Of a stretch of 64,000 nt of DNA, positions 9,337 through 57,921 are shown piece after piece. This DNA comes from a virus, in the IMG/VR virus record IMGVR_UViG_3300032087_002150, positions 32,001 to 96,000 of that record. One strand, written 5' to 3'. Position 1 is the first letter of the stretch. Every line of letters starts with the position of its first letter. Position numbers and translations under genes: made by a program. Under the pieces are notes generated by a model that ran no database searches, was not told the DNA's origin, and saw only the letters and a list, made by a program, of their open reading frames with translations.

Positions 9337-9397
9337 ATTATGCTTGAAACGGGTATCAAAGTAAAGTCTAAAAAACTTTAGGAAAATCAATAACTTA
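9337..9397 (-). promoter_or_regulatory. sigma70 promoter with IHF-like box
   Basis: TTTACT(9360-65)-17-CATAAT(9337-42); AATCAA-TAAC-TTA at 9385-9397. Confidence 0.75.
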
Positions 9398-10243
9398 GGA
9401 ATACAGCAGAATCTCCCTCGCCTTTTTCGCTTCATAACCTTCTTCAGTTTTCTTTCTCCTGCCAGCAGTGTAGGTTACAGGAAAATATTTGTACGACAAC
9501 TTTCCGCATTTGTCTTCAAACCAGTTGTCGTCAGCACGATTACTGTGATATGTGATCGGTTTATCTTGACAGAAATCAATCAGTTCTAGGCATTGGTCAT
9601 CAGTAAACGCATTACCATAATCAGCAATGCTGTTTCGATAAGGCGGATCGAAGAAAAAATAACAACCTTCACTTGCTTTTTCGGCACATTGTTTCCAGTC
9701 AACGGACGAGAACTCGGCAATCTTTAGTGCATCATGCCACCAAGATAGATCTCCTCTGTTATAGATTGAGTCTGTTTGATTTAATAAACCACTAGGTGTG
9801 CCATAACGACCATTGGTGTTTTTGTTGATCTGGAAGATACCGTTAAACCCAGTCTTCATAAGAAAATACAAAGTCGCTGATTCTTCAACATCATTCCACT
9901 TCTCGTAATCCCAAGCATGCTCCTCTCGTACATCGTAATAAAACTTCTTACGATCTTCTTTGTCCAGTGGAAGATACTTTGCTTCCAGCGAATCTAAACG
10001 GAAAGTGAACTCAGACAAGTTGTCTCTGATTGATGTGTAGATCCTAACGATATCTGGATTGATATCATTCAAAAATGCTTTTTTGATTGGATAGTTTGAC
10101 ATAGCATGTATGAACATTGCACCACCACCAAAAAATGGTTCGCAATATTCAGTCGGAGGATCAATACGAGAAGGAAGGAGAGGCAGATAATGCCTCAACA
10201 TTTTGTTCTTACCACCTGCCCATATAAACAACGGTTTAGGCAC
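9395..10243 (-). CDS. Dam-family N6-adenine DNA methyltransferase
   Basis: WAGGK, EPFFGGG and DPPY motifs. Confidence 0.9.
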   Translation of the reverse strand: MPKPLFIWAGGKNKMLRHYLPLLPSRIDPPTEYCEPFFGGGAMFIHAMSNYPIKKAFLNDINPDIVRIYTSIRDNLSEFTFRLDSLEAKYLPLDKEDRKKFYYDVREEHAWDYEKWNDVEESATLYFLMKTGFNGIFQINKNTNGRYGTPSGLLNQTDSIYNRGDLSWWHDALKIAEFSSVDWKQCAEKASEGCYFFFDPPYRNSIADYGNAFTDDQCLELIDFCQDKPITYHSNRADDNWFEDKCGKLSYKYFPVTYTAGRRKKTEEGYEAKKAREILLYS

Positions 10244-10754
10244 TTACATACTCCAAAACTTCACGCATAATCTTCTCCACCTCTTCATTATTATATCCAT
10301 CTTCGCTGAGATAGCAAGAGTTTTTATTTTCCACAAACTTATTGAATCCATCAAGGTGTGCAACATTAAGCGTTTTTTCTAAGACGTGATCTGGTCGAGC
10401 ACCCTCCCCACTACAGAAAGTCACATAACAAACATCGGGATTGATCAGTCGACAAATGTAATTGTTTTTGAACCATCTTTCTATGGCATTACCGCCAGTC
10501 CCCTGCTTTTTCGCTTCGAAGACAGCAACAACTTTTCCATCTCGCAACCAAACGCCACCGTCAGGTTCACAGGCACCTTTATTACCAGGGATTTGATCTT
10601 TGGTAAGTTTGCGCTGAAGTTGTAGGGCAGGAAACTCTTCCGCGAGTTTATCCTTTAGTGTTTTACATTGTTCGTCTAACTTACGAGCAGCTGCATCAGT
10701 AGCGCACATTCCTTTCTGAATACCGCCACGAAAACCATTTTCCCTTTGACTCAT
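10236..10754 (-). CDS. EcoRI/MunI-like type II restriction endonuclease
   Basis: EPDGG...FEAKKQG...GNAIERWFKN matches EcoRI PDGG/EAKHQG/GNAIER; overlaps the MTase start. Confidence 0.75.
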   Translation of the reverse strand: MSQRENGFRGGIQKGMCATDAAARKLDEQCKTLKDKLAEEFPALQLQRKLTKDQIPGNKGACEPDGGVWLRDGKVVAVFEAKKQGTGGNAIERWFKNNYICRLINPDVCYVTFCSGEGARPDHVLEKTLNVAHLDGFNKFVENKNSCYLSEDGYNNEEVEKIMREVLEYVSA

Positions 10755-21130: not shown

Positions 21131-21606
21131 TATCTATCTGCCTTAAAACCAAAGGAACAACCAACACGAGGTTCAGTCAATGTAACAACTTCATGTATCG
21201 TGTTCGCAGGAAAGTAAATCGCGTCATTTTCAGAGAGTTTATACTTCATTCCATCTATTTCCCATACTGTCGAACCAACACACTGTATGTATAAAATATC
21301 AGTCTCATCAGAGTGTGCGCCAAATCCAACGAAGTCTGTATCGTAGGCGACATAGAAGTGCGCATCACAGTGAGGAGAATGCGTAGCACTCATTATCTGA
21401 GCACAGAATCGTTTAACGGATTCAGTCGTAATGTAAGCAGTCTGACTACAGTAACCGTGATCGTACAGTTTTATGTTATCAACCGAACGAGCGTAGGTAG
21501 CATCTGCTTCAGCGTCTTCGAGTGTAATGTTCAGATCGTAAAAGTTCGGGAGATATATTACTTCTTCGTTGCGTATCGCAGTTTGTAGATCAAGTGAGAA
21601 GTTCAT
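21130..21606 (-). CDS. JmjC/cupin-like 2OG oxygenase
   Basis: GFGAHSD..D...Q..G...W...IYFP...HEV...R..SFG. Confidence 0.75.
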   Translation of the reverse strand: MNFSLDLQTAIRNEEVIYLPNFYDLNITLEDAEADATYARSVDNIKLYDHGYCSQTAYITTESVKRFCAQIMSATHSPHCDAHFYVAYDTDFVGFGAHSDETDILYIQCVGSTVWEIDGMKYKLSENDAIYFPANTIHEVVTLTEPRVGCSFGFKADR

Positions 21607-22456
21607 AGTTCCTCAACAGGAGTTCCTTACGATTCTTTTCATCCTCGCGATAGTTCTTACCTGAATGTAGTGTGTAGGTCAGATCAAAGGTGTGTTGCTG
21701 CCAGTCATGATACATTGTTTTCAGCAACTCATTGTTATCGTAGGAGATCATCATGTTAGATTTACAGTAAGAAACCTGCGTATGAAACTCCACGTGATCG
21801 AAGTTCTTATGCATGTCACCGTTACGACCGTACAGGAACGATGTACCGTCCTTTCCTACTTTCGCATAGGGTGGATCGAGATAGATAAACGTGTTAGGAT
21901 CATCAATGAGACAGTCAGAGTAGTCAACGTTGGTAATCTTCCAGTTCTTGATATGCTCTCCGTAAAGTAACAGCGAGCGAATGTTATTCTCACTGAAGTT
22001 TGATACGGATGCCTGCTCACTGAAACCTGATGATTCACCCAGACCTGAGAAGGAACACTTGTTACATACCCACCAGCGCCAACCAATATCAAACTTATTG
22101 TTCCATGGTTGACCGCAATCTATTTTCAGTAAATATGCCTTACAGTCCTCGAACAGTTTACGATGACCCACTGCGTCCCTCGCGTCACTTTTGACCTTCA
22201 GAAGCGTTTCTACGAGGTCTGAGGGAGAGTCACGGAGTGTAATCCAGAAGCAATATAGGTTATAATACTTGTCATTGATGTGAATAGGAACGTGAGGGAA
22301 CTGACGTGAAAAGGCGAATGCCATTGACCCGCCACCCACGAAAGGTTCAACGTATTTTCCTATCAGAGAGTTAGGCAGGAACTGAAGCAACGTCTTGGTT
22401 GCTCGAGACTTCCCGCCCATGTATCGAATCGGAGTTTTTAGTTTTCTCGGTAGCAT
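21590..22456 (-). CDS. dam: Dam-family DNA adenine methyltransferase (T4-like orphan)
   Basis: TPIRYMGGKS, EPFVGGG, YLDPPY, MISY. Confidence 0.88.
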   Translation of the reverse strand: MLPRKLKTPIRYMGGKSRATKTLLQFLPNSLIGKYVEPFVGGGSMAFAFSRQFPHVPIHINDKYYNLYCFWITLRDSPSDLVETLLKVKSDARDAVGHRKLFEDCKAYLLKIDCGQPWNNKFDIGWRWWVCNKCSFSGLGESSGFSEQASVSNFSENNIRSLLLYGEHIKNWKITNVDYSDCLIDDPNTFIYLDPPYAKVGKDGTSFLYGRNGDMHKNFDHVEFHTQVSYCKSNMMISYDNNELLKTMYHDWQQHTFDLTYTLHSGKNYREDEKNRKELLLRNYELLT

Positions 22457-25959: not shown

Positions 25960-27004
25960 GTTCTTCCTCTAGTTCTAGTTCAAGTTCTTCGATTTCCCCA
26001 CCAATCTGGTAGGACTTTCTTACGAAATCTTTGAAGTCAGATTCGGTAAGGAGCGGTTCCCAGAAAGTATCTGTTCTTGTGTCTTTCTCTCTGACTTTGT
26101 TGCCAACGAGTTGTCCAGTGCTCTTATCAACAAGTTGATACCACCCGTTGCTAGGTTTAATAACATACCCACCAGCAAGAGCAACATCCAAAAGACCAGA
26201 GTAACGCTCAATACCACCTTCCCAACTAACTGAGACAGGAACTTTCGACTTCTCTCTAACATAACGCGACTTCTCCACGTTGATTATAAAATCGTAACCA
26301 GTGACTTCAGTACCAGTCTTGTTCTGGCGACGACCAATGATCCACACATTATCAGCAGAGTACATGATACCTGTGCCACCTGATACAATATCTTTCGGGA
26401 ACAATCCAATCTCTTTGTATGTGTGATTGATAGCAAGCATCGGGATATCTTTCATAGTCAGATATGGCGTGACCATACGGAACAGACCCTTCAATGCTTT
26501 CGCTCTTGACATATCTGCGACTGACTTCTCATTGATAGCATCCTCAAGTTCTTTCTTCGATGCTAGATTGCCGATAGAGTCAATCACGATTACCACATCG
26601 TCGGTTGCTTCAAGTGCTTCCAACTGAGCAATCAAGTCAAACTTCAACTCCTCGACGTTAGCGATAGGAGTATGCAGTACACGATCAGTGTCGATACCGA
26701 ACGTCTTGAAATATGCTTGGGGTGAACCAAACTCTGAATCATAGAATAACACGACTGACTCAGGTTTCGCTTTCTGATATGCTGCTGCCATCAACAAAGC
26801 GAACGAAGTCTTGAAGTGTTTACTTGGTCCAGCAAGCACAGTCAACCCAGAGGATAGTCCACCGTCAATATCGCCGCTCAAGGCAACGTTGACCATTGGT
26901 ACGCCTGTGTTGATCAGTTCTTTTTCTACGAAGAACTTGGAATCAGACAACGTCTCCGCTGCCTTGATCTTGCTGTTCTTCTTCAGTTTATCCATTACAC
27001 TCAT
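25952..27004 (-). CDS. uvsX: RecA-like recombinase UvsX
   Basis: AGPSKHFKT, FYDSEFG, DSIGNLASKKE, DMSRAK. Confidence 0.96.
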   Translation of the reverse strand: MSVMDKLKKNSKIKAAETLSDSKFFVEKELINTGVPMVNVALSGDIDGGLSSGLTVLAGPSKHFKTSFALLMAAAYQKAKPESVVLFYDSEFGSPQAYFKTFGIDTDRVLHTPIANVEELKFDLIAQLEALEATDDVVIVIDSIGNLASKKELEDAINEKSVADMSRAKALKGLFRMVTPYLTMKDIPMLAINHTYKEIGLFPKDIVSGGTGIMYSADNVWIIGRRQNKTGTEVTGYDFIINVEKSRYVREKSKVPVSVSWEGGIERYSGLLDVALAGGYVIKPSNGWYQLVDKSTGQLVGNKVREKDTRTDTFWEPLLTESDFKDFVRKSYQIGGEIEELELELEEEHV

Positions 27005-28089
27005 GCTGCATCCTCATCAAACATATCAACCTGACCTGTTGTATCCAACACGTCTTCTTCATTCAACACTTCATCAATGTCGTTGCTTACAATCTCAACT
27101 TCTTCTTCTTTGAACCTGACGTTGGCAACTTTCTCACGGTCATCAAGTTCATACTCACTACGGAGTTCCTTGTTGATTTCCTGCACAGTTTCGAGCAGAG
27201 TCATCTTGTCAGTGTAGTTGACGAAAGCAGACAAGTCTTTCGGGAAACAAGCACCACCAAACCCTCGCTTGTTATCTGGACCAGGAACTCGCCAATGAGT
27301 TGGACCAAGTCTTGGTTCATGAGACAATGCCTTTATGACTTCCATCGGATTAACAGACAGGGTCTCATCTTCCAATGCCTTGTACAGTTGATTGAAGAAT
27401 GTCACTTTCATTGCCAAGAAAGTATTGATAGCATACTTGATAAATGATGCTTCAACTGGATGGCAAGTAGTGACCTTGTTGGGATCATTCGGGAACTTCA
27501 TGTAAGTGTTTGATCTATAAAACTCCATCAACTGTTGAGTTGAGTCTGGCAATCCACCCAGCACCATGTACTCGGGATTACAAAACTCATGATCAGCATT
27601 TTTCTCAGTCAAAAACTCCGGAGAGTAGATGAAGCGAGAAGCTGCCTCGGCACCTTCAACTGACCGACAAATCTTATCAATGACGTCAGGCGTAACAGTA
27701 GACTTCAAAACCACAGCAGATTTAGTCAATCGAATCAACTTCAAGACTGCATCAATGGTGACTGCTGCATCAATCCTACCGTTATTCAACACTGGGGTAG
27801 GAGTACAGACAAAACAAAGAGCAGGTTCCTGCTCGATCAACTGGTCGATGTTAGTTTTGTAGTTGGGATCAACTAGGAATCTCTCAATATTCTCATTGAA
27901 TGATCGCTCAACTGCCTTACCCACGAATCCATGACCCACGATACCAACCAAAGGTTTATCACCTTTGCCGTAATCAGGATCAGTGGGGAAGAAGGAAGGT
28001 CTTTCTTGTTCTTGCTCTGCTTGCTGCTGTTGCATTCGAATCATTTCTGCCTGCTGCAAGAGACGCTGTTGTTCTTCAGTTAGTTCCAT
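27001..28089 (-). CDS. UDP-glucose/GDP-mannose dehydrogenase family protein (short phage form)
   Basis: GHGFVG, CTPTP, KSTV.P, SPEFL.E, GFGGACFPKD. Confidence 0.88.
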   Translation of the reverse strand: MELTEEQQRLLQQAEMIRMQQQQAEQEQERPSFFPTDPDYGKGDKPLVGIVGHGFVGKAVERSFNENIERFLVDPNYKTNIDQLIEQEPALCFVCTPTPVLNNGRIDAAVTIDAVLKLIRLTKSAVVLKSTVTPDVIDKICRSVEGAEAASRFIYSPEFLTEKNADHEFCNPEYMVLGGLPDSTQQLMEFYRSNTYMKFPNDPNKVTTCHPVEASFIKYAINTFLAMKVTFFNQLYKALEDETLSVNPMEVIKALSHEPRLGPTHWRVPGPDNKRGFGGACFPKDLSAFVNYTDKMTLLETVQEINKELRSEYELDDREKVANVRFKEEEVEIVSNDIDEVLNEEDVLDTTGQVDMFDEDAA

Positions 28090-28115
28090 TTGATACTCTC
28101 CATAACAATACACAT

Positions 28116-31027: not shown

Positions 31028-32235
31028 TAGAACTGCTCCGCTTCAGTTGAACCTGACAAGGCAGCGGTAGAACTACCAAGTGCCTCAGTGATCACATCAA
31101 AATATCCTACGCCAACTTCTCTTTGATGCTTTGTGCTTGTGTAACCAAACTGCTCTGCGGCAAACTCCTCTTCCTGTAACCAAGAGTATGCCAGCATGCC
31201 ATGCTTCTTGTACGAACGAGCGAACTGAAACACTGCGTTGTTCGTGGCATGGAAACCAGCGAGCGTGATAAACTGAAACTTGAATCCCATCTTGCTCAAC
31301 TCCCACTGGAAGTCAGCAAGTTCTTGATCACCTGGGATGCTCTTGCGCCAGTTGAATGATGGCGAGCAGTTATACGCGAGCATCGCGTCAGGGACAGCAC
31401 CCCTCACCGCATCAGCAAACTGCTTCGCTTCTTTCAGACAAGGTTTTGAGGTTTCGCACCATACTAGATCAGCATACTCTGCATATCGCTGACCGCGTTC
31501 ACAACCGAACTCTAGTCCACGTCCTTCTTGGATGGAGTAGAATCCTTCTGGGGAACGATCTCCGGTGAGGAACTTACGGTCAAGATCGTCGACATCGGTC
31601 GCAAGGAACTTGGCAGATTCTGCGTCCGTTCGAGCAATAACAAGAGTGTCGGTCCCAGCAACATCACTAGCGAGACGAGCAGCATTAAGATTACGAATGG
31701 CTTGGGAGGTTGGGATGAGAACCTTTCCTCCGAGGTGTCCGCACTTTTTTTCTGAGGAGACTTGGTCTTCGAAGTGAACGGCTGCTGCGCCTGCCTCAAT
31801 AAGATTTCGTGCCAGTTCGTAAGCATTTAAGACTCCTCCGAATCCTGCTTCTGCATCCGCGATGATAGGAGCGAACGGAAACCCTTCTCCACCTTCAGAT
31901 ACAGAGATTTGATCTTGTCGGCGAAAACTATTATTGATATTCCTAACGACATCAGGAACAGAGTTAACAGGGTAGAGACTCTGGTCAGGATAAGTTTCCA
32001 GCGCACTATTAGACGACGCTGCAACTTGCCATCCCGATAAGTATATCGCATGAATACCAGCCTTGACATGTTGTACTGCCTGTTGACCGTTGTATGCTCC
32101 GAATGTATTTATATATGGGTGCGTAGCGAACAACTTACGAAGGTTAGTCGCGCCCATCTTTGCTAATGTGTGCTCTACTTGCACCGATCCTTTTAATTTA
32201 TCCACTACCTCTGGACTGTAGTCACGCTTCTTCAT
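31027..32235 (-). CDS. aceA: Isocitrate lyase
   Basis: KKCGHLGGKVL catalytic loop, YLSGWQVAA, DAEAGFGG, ARTDA, YNCSPSFNW, HQREVG. Confidence 0.97.
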   Translation of the reverse strand: MKKRDYSPEVVDKLKGSVQVEHTLAKMGATNLRKLFATHPYINTFGAYNGQQAVQHVKAGIHAIYLSGWQVAASSNSALETYPDQSLYPVNSVPDVVRNINNSFRRQDQISVSEGGEGFPFAPIIADAEAGFGGVLNAYELARNLIEAGAAAVHFEDQVSSEKKCGHLGGKVLIPTSQAIRNLNAARLASDVAGTDTLVIARTDAESAKFLATDVDDLDRKFLTGDRSPEGFYSIQEGRGLEFGCERGQRYAEYADLVWCETSKPCLKEAKQFADAVRGAVPDAMLAYNCSPSFNWRKSIPGDQELADFQWELSKMGFKFQFITLAGFHATNNAVFQFARSYKKHGMLAYSWLQEEEFAAEQFGYTSTKHQREVGVGYFDVITEALGSSTAALSGSTEAEQF

Positions 32236-35327: not shown

Positions 35328-35941
35328 CAATATTCCAAGAAGGCGATAGCATTACAGTCTTTACCCTGACTGTATGGTTGGATGTAACTTATCTCCCATC
35401 CAGAGTTTCTCGCCGCTAGAAGAACATCTGGTTGATCAATGTTATCTATCAACAATTGCTTCACGCCAAAATCTAAACAACATTTCAAATCAATAACAGT
35501 ATTTTGATATGTGTGCGCGCCATCAATCAAGGCGAAATCAAACGGAGCGGATTTGTCTAGATCAGAGTACGCAAAAATTGTTCGTTGACTAACCCAGTTA
35601 AATCTATCGCCATACTTTTCTTTCATTACCTTTGCCATCATCGCTCTAGTATCTGCTGTGTGTTTTTCTAAATCCTCCGGAACCTCGCCCTTTATTTTCT
35701 TCTTTTGCCTTTCTAAAACATGCTTGGCAACAGATTCATAACCAGGACTCACTGTGGTAACTTTTGCTTGTTTAAAGATTTCAAGTAGGTACGTTGTAGA
35801 GTGACCAAGATGAAATCCTATCTCCAGTATGTTTGTAGGTTCCCACCTGCCTTGTATTTGTTCAAAGAAATCAAAAATATGATTTGTTGGAGGCAAGTGC
35901 CCCCAACCATATTCGAGTTCAACTAGATGATCTAAGTTCAT
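35327..35941 (-). CDS. Class I SAM methyltransferase
   Basis: LEIGFHLGHS, FDFALIDGAH.Y. Confidence 0.8.
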   Translation of the reverse strand: MNLDHLVELEYGWGHLPPTNHIFDFFEQIQGRWEPTNILEIGFHLGHSTTYLLEIFKQAKVTTVSPGYESVAKHVLERQKKKIKGEVPEDLEKHTADTRAMMAKVMKEKYGDRFNWVSQRTIFAYSDLDKSAPFDFALIDGAHTYQNTVIDLKCCLDFGVKQLLIDNIDQPDVLLAARNSGWEISYIQPYSQGKDCNAIAFLEY

Positions 35942-38457
35942 GCGAAAAAATCTTCAAGACTTACTGACTCTTCTTCTTTCCAACCTATCGCCTCAAGCAC
36001 AGGTCGTACCACTGCCAGGAATGCCTTTTCAAACTGCTGTTCATAATCTATGTATTTATGCAACCCAAACTCCTCGGGAAGGAAATCGTAGAAAGCAATG
36101 ATGTTTTCCTTGATAGGGTTCTTTTCGTCAAGGTAGAGAAACTTAATCTTCTCCCCGTCCTTGATTATATTATACCTGCGATCCAATCCTTTGTCAAGCA
36201 ATAGTTTGTTATAAAGCAGAGATCCGCGCACGTGAATGGGGCAACCCTTTTTGTAGATTTCCTTCGCGTCTCTCCACTTACCAACGTCAGATACTCCGCG
36301 AGGAAAGGCAATCTCGTGAGGATCAAGATTGATGAAATGTTCCTTGAACATACGAATAGAGTTTTGCGTTTGCTTTTCAGTTCCCGATATCATGACAGAA
36401 AACAATGCCTTCAAGGCATCACGACAAGAGGCGGGAGTGGATGACTTGACTGCCTCAATACCCATGATCTTTAGTTTGGGTTTGGCATACTGTACACCCT
36501 CGCTGTTATGTACGTTGAGGATGTATCGCTTCTTCGCTGTCCAGATACCTGCGTCAGCGATTACCTCGCGACCCATTACCATCTTGTTCTCATATGCGTT
36601 CATGTACTCGGCAAGTTCATTGTACGATCGCTCGAACAGGGGTTCAAACTTTTCCTCGCCAATCTGCGACAGGATCTGTACAGTCTGATCTGTATCAGTC
36701 AGTCCCATCTTCTCAACGAGAGGACCGAAGTTAACATACACCGAATCAGTGTCAATCGCGATAACGTAGTCAACTCCTTCGGTCTCCAATATCTTGTTCA
36801 TGTATTCGTTGACTGCCTTCTCTGCCCAACGGATAGACAACTGACCTGACATCGTAATCGCTTCTGCCATGCGAATGTCATAGTAACGAAACCAGCGATT
36901 ACCCAACCCACCATAAAGTGAGTTCATCATAATCTTGATCGCCATTTGTTGAGTATCAAGTTTGGTCACCATCTTCGAGGCACCTTTATCACCCTTCTCA
37001 ACTTGAGATTGTAGTCCAAGCATATGCTTCTTTATTTGTTTACGCTCGGCATACAGACCATCAATCACTGCTGGTAGAACACCACGGAAGTCTTTGGAGA
37101 AGTGTACACCGTTGGCGGCGATACAGTCATGCGGCGACTTACTATCGGGTCTCTCCCGAGCGAGGCAGTTATCAACAGTGACACCAGAGGTGCGTGTACT
37201 CACGATAGTCTCAGGCGACATATTATACTGCATGATCAGGTGAGGATACAGACTGTTCAAGTCAAACGAGATAACCCATGAGTGACGACCGATATGCGGT
37301 GCCTTCACATAACCACCACCGAAGTCAGTTTTCATATGTTCTTTCTTGGGCGGCACGACGATCTTGCGTTTACACAGTTCGCGATAGATGTAGGTATCCC
37401 ACAACTGCGTAGTCCCGAATGCTTCCTGATAGTTACAACCACCCTTGTACGCGATAGTCATAGCAAGGTCAATCAAACCCATCTTCTCGTCGATGCGCTC
37501 GACCAACTGGACGTCTTTGATGTTGTAGTCGATAAACTTCTGATAATCTTCCTTGTACAGCGTGTACAGATTACCGTGCTCCTCGTAGGATAGTTTCTTC
37601 TCACCGAGTACAACGTTCGCGATATGATCCAGCTTGTATGACTCCTGTACGCCATACGAGTACACGCCAAACTTTTGAAAGAGATCCCAGTAATCTAGTT
37701 GCTCAATGCCGACCAACTCATAGACCTGCTGCTTTCTACCCTTGAGACTGATTACTTTTTCTCGAACGATACCCCATGGCGACATCTTCTTGAAGGCATC
37801 GCCGCCCAGTATATTGTTGACTCGATTGACAAGATACGGGATATCAAACAGTCGGACGTTCCAACCTGTTACGACATCGGGACAGGTATCTTTACCGTTC
37901 CAGAAACCAAGGAACTTGAGGATGAGATCTAGTTCGCCATCGCACTTGATAAACTTGATATGTTCAGGAGCAACGTCGATCTGAGTTTTCTCAGGATCAT
38001 ACTTGTCTTCAAGTGCCCAGATGAAAAAGTCAGGGCGACCATGATACTTGAGACAGATAGATTGTACTTCTTTTTCTGCTCGCTCAGGTTCAGGGAATCC
38101 GTCATCGGACTCAACCTCGATGTCGATGTTAGCAACGAGAATCTGAGCAGGGTCGTACGATATTTCGTTGGGATAATGCTTCTGTATGTACTGAGCGGCA
38201 AAGTTATTGTTACCGTGTACCTCAACATTATCTACGTTGTCATAGTTCTTCCAGAACTCAGTTGCCTCGGACAACGTTTCAAACTGTACCTCAGACACGC
38301 AACGACCGTCGAGCGTCTTCCACTCGGAGTCTGGTTTATTTGCGGGGAGATACATAACAGGTTTGAAGGTGTCGCGATACTGCTTGCGTACACCGTTCTC
38401 GTATCCTCGGTAGCAAATACTGTTACCGATACGAGAAATATTAGTATAAAACTTCAT
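35938..38457 (-). CDS. 43: Family B DNA polymerase gp43
   Basis: DIEV exonuclease motif, SFDLNSLYP, KIMMNSLYG, IDTDS, KKRY; C-terminal clamp tail SVSLEDFFA. Confidence 0.97.
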   Translation of the reverse strand: MKFYTNISRIGNSICYRGYENGVRKQYRDTFKPVMYLPANKPDSEWKTLDGRCVSEVQFETLSEATEFWKNYDNVDNVEVHGNNNFAAQYIQKHYPNEISYDPAQILVANIDIEVESDDGFPEPERAEKEVQSICLKYHGRPDFFIWALEDKYDPEKTQIDVAPEHIKFIKCDGELDLILKFLGFWNGKDTCPDVVTGWNVRLFDIPYLVNRVNNILGGDAFKKMSPWGIVREKVISLKGRKQQVYELVGIEQLDYWDLFQKFGVYSYGVQESYKLDHIANVVLGEKKLSYEEHGNLYTLYKEDYQKFIDYNIKDVQLVERIDEKMGLIDLAMTIAYKGGCNYQEAFGTTQLWDTYIYRELCKRKIVVPPKKEHMKTDFGGGYVKAPHIGRHSWVISFDLNSLYPHLIMQYNMSPETIVSTRTSGVTVDNCLARERPDSKSPHDCIAANGVHFSKDFRGVLPAVIDGLYAERKQIKKHMLGLQSQVEKGDKGASKMVTKLDTQQMAIKIMMNSLYGGLGNRWFRYYDIRMAEAITMSGQLSIRWAEKAVNEYMNKILETEGVDYVIAIDTDSVYVNFGPLVEKMGLTDTDQTVQILSQIGEEKFEPLFERSYNELAEYMNAYENKMVMGREVIADAGIWTAKKRYILNVHNSEGVQYAKPKLKIMGIEAVKSSTPASCRDALKALFSVMISGTEKQTQNSIRMFKEHFINLDPHEIAFPRGVSDVGKWRDAKEIYKKGCPIHVRGSLLYNKLLLDKGLDRRYNIIKDGEKIKFLYLDEKNPIKENIIAFYDFLPEEFGLHKYIDYEQQFEKAFLAVVRPVLEAIGWKEEESVSLEDFFA

Positions 38458-48529: not shown

Positions 48530-49207
48530 TTATTCTCCATAAGTTGAGGATGGTTCGAGTGCTACGATATATTTGATATCTCCAGTATCTTTCTTCCACT
48601 CGGTGATCATTTTACTGGAAATAGAAACCTCATAGTCGCCCTCAATCATTTTAAGATTGCCGATGTTCGCGACAAGTTTAAAATCATCAATGTCAGATGA
48701 CCCAGGAACGATGAGGTCAAATGAGTTAGAAGTTGGATCAGTCACATCTACAACTGACAACTTGATGCCGTTCTCACTTGGCAGGATACTCATTTTCTCA
48801 TGACCGAGAGCGGATGCTGCTCGGCGAAGTCGATTCAACGTAGTTGAGTTGATATTAAACTTAGCAACTTCATCAGGCAAGGTGATCGACTTTTCAGTGA
48901 AGGTAAGGATCTCCTCAGAAGCATAGTAATACTTACAACTGTTGAGTCCAGTCCCGTCTGAAACTACCAGATGATCGTCATTGAAAGTTAGATGATGATC
49001 ATCCAAGATACTGATTACTGACAAGAACTCTCCCATATCATAAAGACCGAATCGCTTAGGGAAATCCTGATCTAGAGTTGCTTCCGCGAGAATACTTTTA
49101 CCGCCAGATAGACTGTTCAAGGTATTCTGTTCTCGGATCAACATGTTTGGATTAATACTCGCAAAGTTCTGAAGAACCTTTAAAGTGTTTTCATTGAGTT
49201 GCATCAT
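48530..49207 (-). CDS. 45: Sliding clamp gp45
   Basis: TL..L.NFASIN, F.LYD..EFL, NLK...GDY.V.IS, YIVALE. Confidence 0.92.
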   Translation of the reverse strand: MMQLNENTLKVLQNFASINPNMLIREQNTLNSLSGGKSILAEATLDQDFPKRFGLYDMGEFLSVISILDDHHLTFNDDHLVVSDGTGLNSCKYYYASEEILTFTEKSITLPDEVAKFNINSTTLNRLRRAASALGHEKMSILPSENGIKLSVVDVTDPTSNSFDLIVPGSSDIDDFKLVANIGNLKMIEGDYEVSISSKMITEWKKDTGDIKYIVALEPSSTYGE

Positions 49208-49351
49208 TATCTCCTTCTTCAGATTCGATACGCCATAATATATCTTCAACAGCAGTTATGTAACCAGTGATCCATAACTCACTCTGCTCATAGTATCCTT
49301 TCCTTGCTTCCTTAATGATGTTGTAGAGGAAAGGTTTTAAGTCTTCAACCA

Positions 49352-54531: not shown

Positions 54532-54592
54532 ATTCTGCCTGAATAAAACCGCAAAGGCAAATCTAAAAAACTTTAAGATAATCAAGGACTTA
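54532..54592 (-). promoter_or_regulatory. sigma70 promoter with IHF-like box
   Basis: TTGCCT(54555-60)-17-CAGAAT(54532-37); AATCAA-GGAC-TTA at 54580-92. Confidence 0.65.
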
Positions 54593-55399
54593 CGCAAAGA
54601 AATCTTCTAGTGAAACGGAACTAGACTTTTCGTACTTGCCTCCACTCTTATCTCGTAGACGAAGTTCAGCGTGCCCAGTAGAACTACGAATGTACATAGA
54701 GCAAAGATCTGGAAACATCTCAGCAATCTTGGTGATCGAATCATGCACATATTGCTCAGTCCTTATAGTTTGTAGTCCACCTTCCTCTTTGTAATAGTTG
54801 GACTTCACTGTGTATTTATCAAGGCGGCACAGTACACCGTGTTTCACATACTGTCGCAGACTATACTCATAGTCCTCGCCATGATTAGTTACACGATCAA
54901 GGTATTCATCATGATCACAAATGACGCCAAACATAGAAGCAATGATATAACAAAGTTTAGAGTAGACTCGATCCTTCATAAAGTATGCGTTCGCAGCTGC
55001 GTAGATACCAAAAGTTTTAGCACCGAGTTCCTCACAGTTTTTAAACCCCTGTTCAATAATCTCAGTGTAGAGATCATCAATGGGTTCTAGAGTTTTCTCA
55101 TCCTTCCTACGTTGTACCTGTTCAATGTCGTCATCAAACATCATCAGGTAAGTGCCCTCTGGGTAATACTTCTCAATCCAGTTACGTTGAGCACCGATAG
55201 TCGGGACACCAACTACAATGTTGCCTCCATACTTGTGTCCAGCAAGTGCCTCTTTGTATACTGCTTCCTCTTCTTCATTCGCAACGAAAACAGTAACACG
55301 TTCAGGTGGGATGTTATGTTCCTCAAATACCTTGAACGTCTTATCTTGAATAGTCTTAGATCGTTGGTAGGAAGGGCAGGCGATTTGATAATCAATCAT
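54590..55399 (-). CDS. TET-associated (TAGT/GREB1-like) glycosyltransferase
   Basis: PSYQR, RNWI, FDDDI, EDYEYSL, GGLQ; ends SVSLEDFFA. Confidence 0.8.
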   Translation of the reverse strand: MIDYQIACPSYQRSKTIQDKTFKVFEEHNIPPERVTVFVANEEEEAVYKEALAGHKYGGNIVVGVPTIGAQRNWIEKYYPEGTYLMMFDDDIEQVQRRKDEKTLEPIDDLYTEIIEQGFKNCEELGAKTFGIYAAANAYFMKDRVYSKLCYIIASMFGVICDHDEYLDRVTNHGEDYEYSLRQYVKHGVLCRLDKYTVKSNYYKEEGGLQTIRTEQYVHDSITKIAEMFPDLCSMYIRSSTGHAELRLRDKSGGKYEKSSSVSLEDFFA

Positions 55400-55799
55400 T
55401 ACAAACTCTCTTTCTTAAATCACTAGAACTAAATCGGTGGTCTCTTTTGTTAAAGTATAGATCGATGTCACGTTTGCGACAAATATCTTTACCAGTAAAA
55501 TCTTTATCCCGATACTCTTCGCCGAGGATACGCACGTTGATATGATACATCGCTAGGATATCTTCTAGGTCTGCCTCAGTAGAGTATGGGATAATCTCAT
55601 CAACGTAGCGAACTGCTTTGAGTTGAGTGTATCTCTCGACGACAGTTTGAATAGGTTGATTTTTGTTAGGACGGTCAAGAGTCGGGTCTACCTGTAGTCC
55701 ACAAATCAAATAATCACATTGGTCTTTGGCATCACGAAGCATTTGTACATGTCCAGCATGCAGCAAATCAAAAGCACTACAAGTAAACCCAACTCTCAT
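55392..55799 (-). CDS. TagD-like cytidylyltransferase
   Basis: SAFDLLHAGH (HXGH), ERY.QL.A..YVDE, R.H.FSSS.LR. Confidence 0.9.
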   Translation of the reverse strand: MRVGFTCSAFDLLHAGHVQMLRDAKDQCDYLICGLQVDPTLDRPNKNQPIQTVVERYTQLKAVRYVDEIIPYSTEADLEDILAMYHINVRILGEEYRDKDFTGKDICRKRDIDLYFNKRDHRFSSSDLRKRVCND

Positions 55800-57220
55800 C
55801 CGAAAAACTCCTCAAGCGAACCTGCTTGTTGGAAAGCATTAGGATGATATTCCATCAACATGGACTTACCACCCTTCTTTTCAAGGTATTCATACCACTC
55901 AGTCTCATCCCACATGCCAGGGGAGACACCATTCCAATACTCGCGCCATAACTTATGCTCTTTGTTAAGTCGGCGGTCATCAACGTATTGTTTACGATAC
56001 GACTCATACTCCCAAGAACCCAACTTATCCATATCCTCGCGGAAGTAATATACCAGAGACATACGCATCAAGTCATCTTCACCTGAGTCGGGTGCTTCGA
56101 TAGGAGTGTTGCCATGGATCACTCGCATGTTATCAACGAGTAGCAGGTCTCCTGGTCGAACGTTGATAGCAACGCGAACCTCTGGACAAACAAGATAACC
56201 ACCCTTCCAGTTTCGCTTACCGTCACTGATCACAGTCAGGTTTGAGAATCCTGGGACGAGCGAACCTTGGTCACGGTGGCATGCCATACGTGCATTACGA
56301 TCCTTGGTGGTTGTGTTCACTGTAATCGTAGTGAAGGTTGTATCCTCGCCGATCAAGAAACGGTTGTCCAATCTATCAGCAAATGCTTTCTGCTTGCTGT
56401 ATCGTTCAGGAAGCAACTCGGCGAAAGTCTTGTCGAGTTTACGAGCGAACGGATATGACTTCTCAAACTTCTCACGGTTGTGGTCAACGTATGAAGTCGC
56501 CCGACCATATGGGATACGTGGGTATCGACCATAGAAACCTGCGATACCTGACCAGATAGCAGTCGCATAAGAAGTATCGGAGATCATGGTATCACGAACA
56601 CGCTGAGCATATATTGATGCTGCATGAATATCTGGAGAATAACCAAGACCCTTGGTCAACTCAGAAAGTCGCACCATTAGTTTCGGAAAGAACCCATCAT
56701 ACTCGCCGAACTCTTTCTCAATAGCAGTCGTCAACCAAACTTCGCCTCTCGCCTGCTCATCGTTGCTGCTTTTAGCAATCTCTTCCAACGGATCAGATCC
56801 GTCGATGCTTGGCGGTTGCCCTTTGATGTACCAATCGAGGACTCTACTTTGAAACGCAGTGACCCACTCGCGACCATATGACTTGCCTTCCCTCGGACCT
56901 GCTGCTAGACCACGATTGTTCGACTCAACTGCTGCGCCATACAACCCTTCAAGAGCACCGTCCTGTTCTTCCTGAGTAAACACACCCTTGCGGAACTTAA
57001 ACGCAATACGATCCTCGTTTAGAGTATCACCTGTCAACGAGTTACTCGGAAGATAAAAATCTGTATCTCTATCAATCAAGATGTCATAGTGTTCCTCGTC
57101 AACAAACTGACCAAGGACTTTGTCTTCAGACTCTATGAAGTTAGCAATGTATACATCTTGACCTTCGTCACCAGTGAACCAGTCCCAAGTGTAGTTTCCG
57201 TGTTTGATTTTTTCGTTCAT
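55796..57220 (-). CDS. TET/JBP-family 2OG-Fe(II) nucleic-acid dioxygenase
   Basis: FTTITVN, ACHRD.G, GGYL..PE...A.N..PGDLL, HGNTPI, RMSLV.YFRE; ends SLEEFFG. Confidence 0.85.
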   Translation of the reverse strand: MNEKIKHGNYTWDWFTGDEGQDVYIANFIESEDKVLGQFVDEEHYDILIDRDTDFYLPSNSLTGDTLNEDRIAFKFRKGVFTQEEQDGALEGLYGAAVESNNRGLAAGPREGKSYGREWVTAFQSRVLDWYIKGQPPSIDGSDPLEEIAKSSNDEQARGEVWLTTAIEKEFGEYDGFFPKLMVRLSELTKGLGYSPDIHAASIYAQRVRDTMISDTSYATAIWSGIAGFYGRYPRIPYGRATSYVDHNREKFEKSYPFARKLDKTFAELLPERYSKQKAFADRLDNRFLIGEDTTFTTITVNTTTKDRNARMACHRDQGSLVPGFSNLTVISDGKRNWKGGYLVCPEVRVAINVRPGDLLLVDNMRVIHGNTPIEAPDSGEDDLMRMSLVYYFREDMDKLGSWEYESYRKQYVDDRRLNKEHKLWREYWNGVSPGMWDETEWYEYLEKKGGKSMLMEYHPNAFQQAGSLEEFFG

Positions 57221-57227
57221 AGTTCCT

Positions 57228-57256
57228 ATTCTACTAAATCACAAATCAAAAGTCAA
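57228..57256 (-). promoter_or_regulatory. sigma70 promoter of the TET operon
   Basis: TTGACT-17-TAGAAT, 7 nt upstream of the ATG (near-leaderless). Confidence 0.65.
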
Positions 57257-57409
57257 TACCTGAGAATCAACCATTGTAAACTTTTGACTTTTGGTTCGTA
57301 TCTCTAATCCGTTGTATTTATGTTTGATCCCGTTTTCAGTCATTTCCTTAGATAAAGAGGCGAGGTCATTGTACTTCATTGATTTCTTCTTGGGAATATA
57401 TTTCTTCAT
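57239..57409 (-). CDS. Hypothetical protein (56 aa)
   Basis: Manual translation MKKYIPKKKSMKYNDL... Confidence 0.45.
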   Translation of the reverse strand: MKKYIPKKKSMKYNDLASLSKEMTENGIKHKYNGLEIRTKSQKFTMVDSQVLTFDL

Positions 57410-57921
57410 TTATTATGTTTCTTTGCACCTTTAAGGTACTCATTACCACAATCAGAATGCGGTCCATTGGCATCAACGTAATGTAAGAAGGATTGGTAAA
57501 CCATACCATCTGGATTAGAATCTCTCCAGTGCATCAATGGGCGGTGGTATACTACTGCGTCACCTTGTTCCATAGCATATGAACCACCATCCCAATGAAA
57601 CTCCCAAGGAGATTTTTCATTGCGAAGGCAAACAGTGACACTGACTTGACAAGCAGGACGATCGCTGTGCTTCTCTAAGGTTTCTCCTACGGAATATATT
57701 CTACAATAGTCGTAAGTTGGAATGAGTTCTAATCCAGTAATAGATTCCATCTTCTCGAGAGAATCTTCTAGTAAGTCCCAGTTTGCACCATAGATTGCCC
57801 AAGAGTTTCTACATTGACCGTCATCAAACTGCATATTTTCTTTCATGCTTTCCATTCTATCTGCGTATTGATTCGCAGTGTCAATGTCCAAGAACCCTTT
57901 TACGACTTGCGCGAGTTTCAT
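57406..57921 (-). CDS. 2OG-Fe(II) oxygenase
   Basis: PTY.Y.RIY, LEKHSDRPAC, GDAVVY....HWR, Q.FLHYV. Confidence 0.82.
   Translation of the reverse strand: MKLAQVVKGFLDIDTANQYADRMESMKENMQFDDGQCRNSWAIYGANWDLLEDSLEKMESITGLELIPTYDYCRIYSVGETLEKHSDRPACQVSVTVCLRNEKSPWEFHWDGGSYAMEQGDAVVYHRPLMHWRDSNPDGMVYQSFLHYVDANGPHSDCGNEYLKGAKKHNK

Follow-up and report, generated by a model that had tools for sequence, protein, structure and literature searches.

A TET–nucleotidyltransferase–TAGT operon of a marine T4-like virus as a candidate system for base-J-like glycosylation of thymine in DNA

Hypermodification of phage DNA is an established means of protection from host nucleases. The operon considered here encodes a TET/JBP dioxygenase (TET), a CTP_transf_like nucleotidyltransferase (CT), and a TAGT-family glycosyltransferase (GT), and lies in a 64,000-nucleotide stretch (the window; positions 32,001 to 96,000) of IMG/VR record IMGVR_UViG_3300032087_002150, a marine T4-like virus of 151.7 kb that is 84% complete (genome G000). 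Precedents exist for its parts, namely T-dioxygenases, GTs acting after 5mYOX enzymes, a cytidylyltransferase in a TET-GT cluster, and NDP-sugars that phages make to glycosylate DNA (PMC13326640). The phage T-dioxygenases of clades C1 and C2 (PMC13229309; TET89 in PMC8256090) have been followed as far as 5-hydroxymethyluracil (5hmU), the glycosylation step lying beyond that study (PMC13229309). In the contig 53 cluster, HAD/APH proteins, a cytidylyltransferase, and a GT-B enzyme yield heptosyl-5-hydroxymethylcytosine (5hmC), and the cytidylyltransferase is needed for the sugar product (bioRxiv 10.1101/2023.12.21.572611). No paper showing the glycosylation step for a phage T-dioxygenase/GT pair was found, nor any description of a T-dioxygenase and TAGT pair with a CT-family supply enzyme in the literature searched, Iyer et al. 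2013 being outside its coverage.

The TET resembles the described T-dioxygenases in being a PF12851 protein without an accompanying C5-methyltransferase (C5-MT). Judged against the published description, it also shows the marks of clade C1, which are a C-terminal extension and, among its relatives, GATase, P-loop kinase, and AADT neighbors (PMC13229309). It differs in its 474-aa length (approximately 290–300 aa in C2), in its TAGT and CT partners, in a putative clamp-binding tail, and in that no ParB was found. The predicted route from thymine via 5hmU to glycosyl-hmU is that of trypanosome base J (JBP1/2 and JGT), and the TAGT has an R...DDD...EDY motif, which in an alignment by Pyle et al. 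matches the base J glucosyltransferase (bioRxiv 10.1101/2023.12.21.572611); the present system stands apart in its phage origin, in having an enzyme of its own for donor supply, and in its predicted docking on the clamp. Contig 53 likewise holds a CTP_transf enzyme inside a 5mYOX-GT cluster, the two CTs being likened by description only, and differs in having been tested on 5hmC, in its GT-B enzyme, and in its kinase/phosphatase partner. The T2/T6 beta-glucosyl-HMC-alpha-glucosyltransferase (PF20691) belongs to the same Pfam family as the TAGT and adds a second glucose to glucosyl-hmC in a pre-replicative route, whereas here the operon has the TAGT as its sole GT, and a search of G000 for a ThyA-type hydroxymethylase found none.

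The interpretation favored here, with moderate confidence, is a post-replicative, base-J-like glycosylation of thymine. TET would oxidize thymine to 5hmU in newly made phage DNA, CT would join a nucleoside triphosphate to hexose-1-phosphate and so enlarge the pool of nucleoside diphosphate (NDP)-hexose, and TAGT would move the hexose onto the 5hmU hydroxyl, creating a base-J-like mark. TET and TAGT would be held at the sliding clamp with CT as a soluble supply enzyme, and the likely purpose would be to shield the DNA from host nucleases. The three families named in a first-pass annotation of the sequence all passed a Pfam check above the curated cut-offs (Tet_JBP 55.8 against 34.9 bits, CTP_transf_like 52.7 against 21, and TAGT 61.8 against 27.5), and the catalytic motifs of all three proteins are intact. 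The TET and CT frames overlap by 4 nt (ATGA) and those of CT and TAGT by 8 nt, and the presence of an identical operon in several independent assemblies showed that it is not an assembly artefact. Open reading frames (ORFs) and consensus matches also bore out the annotated layout of three overlapping ORFs with their own promoter, bounded by the next promoter and close to genes 47/46, and the claim of a DNA hypermodification system was judged right.

Thymine is the likely substrate of the TET, with 5hmU as the predicted product, on the basis of the missing C5-MT, the 5hmU-type neighbors of its relatives, and the depletion of RGCY sites. The HxD...H iron ligands (H315, D317, and H369) and the 2-oxoglutarate-binding R386 of the TET are invariant columns. 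The first-pass annotation had reported no C5-methylase in the window and had suggested thymine as a possible substrate; both statements held, as none was found in the window, in the whole 84%-complete genome, or in five relatives carrying the same TET type (G005, G035, C48C1, DLP6, and Cr30; three complete isolate genomes and two near-complete ones). TETs 65–72% identical to this one, some of them in phages whose gp47 is also approximately 80% identical, have genes for GATase, GNAT, amino acid:DNA transferase (ADDT), and P-loop kinase beside them, the kinase and ADDT being 5hmU machinery. RGCY occurs 214 times in G000 against 1974 expected (0.11 of expectation), which is consistent with unprotected GpC cytosines; CCGG (0.34) and TGCA (0.39) are also depleted. 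Since the avoidance recurs in most close marine relatives, whichever cassette they carry, it is probably a host restriction signature and could identify the host. GmrSD_N-like genes of 450–460 aa repeatedly adjoin TET cassettes (L224:11171-12553, L117:2714-4069, and L024:3586-4965), with none found in G000, and could encode ParB-fold activators or nucleases.

The TAGT carries the motif residues R13, D88-D90, and E175-D176-Y177, and its confident predicted model matches the GT-A enzymes TarS, TarP, and RmlT, while a TAGT profile search of PDB sequences gave no informative match. Nearly all TAGT homologues with flanking DNA adjoin a TET, and throughout the family TET-TAGT is the conserved pair. 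A search for TAGT positions that track CT linkage returned variable columns only, the conserved columns being unchanged by it.

Both TET and TAGT end in putative clamp-binding tails (Table 1) and probably dock on the sliding clamp via a tail shared with the polymerase, as suggested by sequence. The motif was present in 35 of 41 distinct TET C-termini, and the tail of gp55 is similar to the L-x-x-F-F tail of TET, TAGT, and gp43; five of 192 proteins carried the motif against 0.35 expected. Most DNA-acting enzymes of the related cassettes carry it, and it was found on none of 46 CTs or 18 epimerases, the mutase also lacking it. The T4 alpha-GT, which binds gp45 (PMC13216743), provides a precedent for clamp binding. 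When the clamp was modeled in complex with the TAGT tail, the result was a weak pass (0.52 against 0.01 for the best control) with at least 65% of contacts in common between runs and a partner pLDDT of at least 48. Passing scores were obtained for 51 of 78 solved complexes and two of 108 mismatches, yet those at or below 0.60 came from only five of the 78 solved complexes and all four passing mismatches, and the pass may be recall of an existing solved clamp-polymerase peptide complex.

The genomic context of CT points to a sugar-1-phosphate substrate. In a sister operon (L266, two assemblies), the order is TET, an 89-aa ORF, a eukaryote-type phosphomannomutase (PMM), CT, and TAGT, with CT 90% and TAGT 84% identical to those described here. 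Among the 79 closest viral CT loci, a PMM lies within 5 kb of CT in 51 and an epimerase or NDP-sugar dehydrogenase is nearby in 45. Two distant CTs (59% and 46% identical) adjoin the heptose genes GmhA and GmhB, one of them also near an HddA-like kinase, and Bacteroidota CTs (approximately 60–70% identical) are often placed among NDP-sugar genes such as ManC, GMD/Fcl, UGD, GalE, Glf, and Rml, most of them named by eye. The CDP-glycerol polymerase TagB/TagF (PF04464) was found in none of 51 CT carriers (50 plus G000; controls positive, most viral records being fragments), and LicD in none of the five CT carriers tested. From this context we infer that CT is a hexose-1-phosphate nucleotidyltransferase. 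Unrelated nucleotidyltransferases of the NTP_transferase fold stand beside TET or TET-TAGT in the cultured phages DLP6 (L031:4235-5926) and S-CBWM1 (L033:6058-7139), whose TETs are annotated as SNF2 proteins, and their presence at the same position fits a supply role for CT.

Several further observations were made on CT loci. Jumbo-phage contigs (L039-L113) carry a block of DNA polymerase, cupin, CT, PMM, epimerase/UGD, clamp, and a 485-aa TGT/DpdA-like gene, and a TET profile with a positive control detected no TET in four long jumbo-phage CT records; CT may feed a different DNA glycosylation in these phages. An assignment of the cupin adjoining CT as a sugar isomerase was tried and not obtained. 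In Sphingobacterium (L173:3977-4921 and other loci), tandem diverged CT paralogues adjoin a ManC-like gene, a possible heterodimer or pair of specificities. A role as a housekeeping replacement for GalU in Bacteroidota was rejected: canonical galU passed its cut-off in none of 121 genomes, but CT was present in only seven, making it accessory in this group.

The CT sequence combines an HxGH motif with a TagD-type fold, features shared with TagD/GCT (PDB 1COZ and 2B7L; approximately 26% identity) and HldC/RfaE II (5X9Q and 5XF2; approximately 23%). It falls far under both equivalog cut-offs, with tied scores of 63.8 for TagD (TIGR01518, cut-off 165.4) and 64 for RfaE domain II (TIGR02199, cut-off 181.5), has no teichoic-acid-type partners, and forms its own clade in a quick tree, where a long, supported branch separates it from HldE II. 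The family is large (at least 596 viral matches; 8000 scored proteins) and is abundant among marine phages and Bacteroidota. As to its nucleotide, UTP is the first candidate given the GalE, Glf, and UGD contexts, CTP comes second on account of the fold and the conserved loop Arg R119, GTP is a weaker candidate suggested by the PMM with HddA and the GMD contexts, and any other nucleotide is improbable.

Exchange of the genes behind TET-CT bears on the donor. In the closest phages (TET 87–92% and CT 96–98% identical), the two genes are followed by a GalE-like epimerase, sometimes a group 1 glycosyltransferase, a 342-aa protein, and a UDP-galactopyranose mutase (Glf); the 342-aa protein resembles T4 beta-GT clusters, as a lead only. 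The swap between TAGT and GalE-GT-Glf recurs in a second lineage (L231-233 against L265). With moderate confidence, TET-CT is regarded as a stable unit of the lineage behind which the module is exchanged. The GalE-like and Glf-like enzymes found after a near-identical CT have best matches that use UDP-sugars, and the donor is more probably a common one than a private one; a single CT serving two transferase modules would suit an ordinary NDP-hexose that is either used as such or first turned into a furanose. Phage C48C1, whose genome is complete, has the GT-Glf pair (342-aa GT 72% and Glf 78% identical) and no CT, so the GT-Glf module can run on other supplies. The GalE-342-aa protein-Glf cassette, present in this cultured phage, is a candidate for a galactofuranosyl-hmU product.

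The order TET-CT-TAGT is conserved only narrowly, and the CT link is not random. When TETs were clustered into lineages at 90% identity (46 glycosylating and 20 amino-acid-type), 14 of 46 glycosylating and one of 20 amino-acid-type lineages had a CT at some position in the fetched locus (p=0.027, phylogeny uncorrected), and the functional link to glycosylation implied by the first-pass annotation was judged probable. The closest TAGTs (84–86% identical; L263, L265, and L266) all have CT directly upstream, these being the three relatives with upstream DNA. More distant TAGT loci show CT-TET-TAGT, TET-TAGT-CT, or CT-gp47-gp46-TET-TAGT orders with CTs from other sublineages, TAGTs 73–79% identical often have no CT nearby, and no CT was found in complete 30-kb TAGT phages. 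CT is seen, again with middling confidence, as an accessory booster rather than a family-wide requirement of TAGT. The first-pass annotation had named the absence of CT from most homologous loci, a test set beforehand, as the result that would refute its proposal, and CT was indeed absent from most homologous TET-GT loci.

Several results weigh against a thymine-glycosylating operon supplied by a sugar-phosphate enzyme. A CT profile (alignment A4, built without HldE rows) scored 71.7 bits with TagD, the type of CTP:glycerol-3-phosphate cytidylyltransferase, against 43.7 with HldC, and the fold likewise matched TagD better (Z 18.2, rmsd 1.8 over 125 residues) than HldC (Z 16.4, rmsd 2.4 over 133), and R119, the Arg that opens the TagD-type RTEGISTT loop, is retained. 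No characterized or assayed CT-family member was found in a literature search, and 23 of the 79 CT loci have no recognized sugar or TET neighbor. No PF03332 PMM was found in G000, so the host must supply the sugar-1-phosphate. Within 2.5 kb of TET the association of CT is modest (eight of 46 glycosylating against none of 20 amino-acid-type lineages, p=0.09), and a nearby CT also occurs in one ADDT lineage. Some ParB-less C1 enzymes are inactive in E. coli (PMC13229309), and neither a ParB activator (PF02195) nor a homologue of the relatives' GmrSD_N-like genes was found in the 84%-complete genome, so TET activity in E. coli is not guaranteed.

Among the alternatives, the one that survives best, though unlikely, is that CT is a passenger serving other glycan pathways such as virion or host-surface glycosylation, with TET and TAGT running on host UDP-glucose alone. 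This would account for the abundance of CT, for the TET-less jumbo-phage records and the complete CT-less TAGT phages, and for a separate glycosyltransferase/epimerase cluster and UGD-like gene in the genome. It is less easily reconciled with the overlap of CT with both neighbors, with its position directly before TAGT in all three relatives having a TAGT at least 84% identical and upstream DNA, with CTs of different sublineages flanking TET-TAGT in several gene orders, or with an ADDT-type relative (85% complete) that has UGD and no CT. The cluster lies beyond the window (G000 C1:2300-12235) and comprises an epimerase together with glycosyltransferase-like and carbamoyltransferase-like genes that were identified by eye, the whole being an alternative consumer of the CT product; a UDP-glucose/GDP-mannose dehydrogenase-like gene in the window (27001-28113) has a long N-terminal extension and adjoins a recA/uvsX-like gene.

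Less probable still is that CT makes a CDP-hexose (e.g., CDP-glucose) as the private donor of this TAGT subclade, and the modified base might even then equal base J in mass. The TagD-like fold with its retained loop Arg and the fixed position of CT upstream of the closest TAGT subclade argue for such a donor, whereas the frequent lack of a nearby CT at TAGTs 73–79% identical, the conserved TAGT columns unchanged by CT linkage, and the near-identical CT preceding GalE- and Glf-like enzymes with UDP-sugar-using best matches argue against it. A further alternative is that a host methylase, or one encoded in the missing 16% of the genome, supplies 5-methylcytosine (5mC) that is converted to glycosyl-5hmC. 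This is improbable: the genome is incomplete and the phage T-dioxygenases tested also oxidize 5mC in vitro (PMC13229309), but no C5-MT occurs in the five relatives sharing the TET type, the neighbors are of the 5hmU type, and RGCY avoidance is strong.

Synthesis of CDP-glycerol or CDP-ribitol with transfer of a polyol or polyol-phosphate to the base is highly improbable, since TagD as the best structural match and K47 aligned near TagD K46 are set against the TIGR01518 score tied with RfaE II, the absence of TagF/TagB, the PMM inside the sister operon, and the chemistry of GT-A enzymes, which act at an anomeric carbon that CDP-polyols do not have. The polyol donor proposed in the first-pass annotation was thus not supported, CT neighbors being sugar-1-phosphate makers and NDP-sugar users, and neither was its view that the donor is necessarily non-canonical, with CT missing from most TET-GT loci and a near-identical CT preceding GalE-GT-Glf. 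Of its CDP donor, the possible use of CTP by an enzyme whose fold is closest to TagD stands, while a special CDP donor is poorly supported.

Beyond base-J-like glycosylation of thymine, a broader proposition is held only tentatively: that the CT family, usually labeled glycerol-3-phosphate cytidylyltransferase, is an unrecognized HxGH-fold hexose-1-phosphate nucleotidyltransferase, possibly making CDP-glucose, that this phage would use it to place base J, or an isomer of it, into DNA at the replication fork, and that sister phages would swap the module to make galactofuranosyl or amino-acid thymine from the same oxidase. In the literature searched, no description of a sugar-phosphate activity of the CT family or of exchangeable clamp-tailed modules was found.

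Table 1. Positions of the operon, its signals, and related features (window coordinates unless a locus is named).
Feature	Position	Strand	Remarks
TET/JBP	57220-55796	minus	474 aa, long form with C-terminal extension; PF12851
CT (CTP_transf_like nucleotidyltransferase)	55799-55392	minus	135 aa; HAGH motif; TagD-like fold
TAGT GT-A glycosyltransferase	55399-54590	minus	269 aa; PF20691
TET C-terminal putative sliding-clamp tail, SLEEFFG	55799-55819	minus	
TAGT C-terminal tail, SVSLEDFFA	54593-54619	minus	Same as last 9 residues of phage DNA polymerase
Sigma70-like promoter before TET	57256-57228	minus	TTGACT-17-TAGAAT, 10/12 matches; consensus match only
Downstream promoter-like element bounding the operon	54532-54592, core 54564-54532	minus	One of four window copies
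DNA polymerase gp43	35938-38457	minus	Context; same clamp tail at end
gp45-like sliding clamp	48530-49249	minus	Context; named by sequence and T4-like gene order; predicted docking partner
TET-(CT)-GalE-342-aa protein-Glf cassette	L005:7813-11583, L224, L231-L233, L346-L348, L389, C48C1 L030:7413-9445		

Upstream of the operon lie gp47 and gp46, the latter separated from TET by 171-aa and 56-aa ORFs. The 171-aa protein (57406-57921; PHROG 2954) is labeled ferrochelatase, appears by eye to be 2-oxoglutarate-Fe oxygenase-like, and is retained in close relatives with any cassette. A sigma70-like scan of the window gave 37 sites against 25.5 expected. The -10 box of the TET promoter stops 7 nt short of the ATG, and the mRNA would therefore be near-leaderless; two such promoters stop 6–7 nt before the ATG, those of TET (57228-57220) and of a 220-aa Methyltransf_24 protein (50021-50014), with leaderless transcripts probable. 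The downstream promoter-like motif occurs four times on the minus strand of the window (9369, 51242, 53661, and 54564) with a conserved 25-nt upstream element. The window also encodes two D12-class N6-adenine methyltransferases (9395-10243 and 21590-22456), the first adjoined by a 172-aa ORF (10236-10754) that may encode an endonuclease.

With only three genes, the operon offers a small system in which to test for a base-J-like mark in phages. It also gives access to a family of thousands of CT proteins, to which marine phage surveys may wrongly assign a glycerolipid or teichoic-acid function. In the cassettes found behind one TET (TAGT, GalE-GT-Glf, and kinase-ADDT), nature has in effect run an experiment on exchanging DNA chemistry, and the clamp tail hints at a way for post-replicative marking to keep up with the replication fork.

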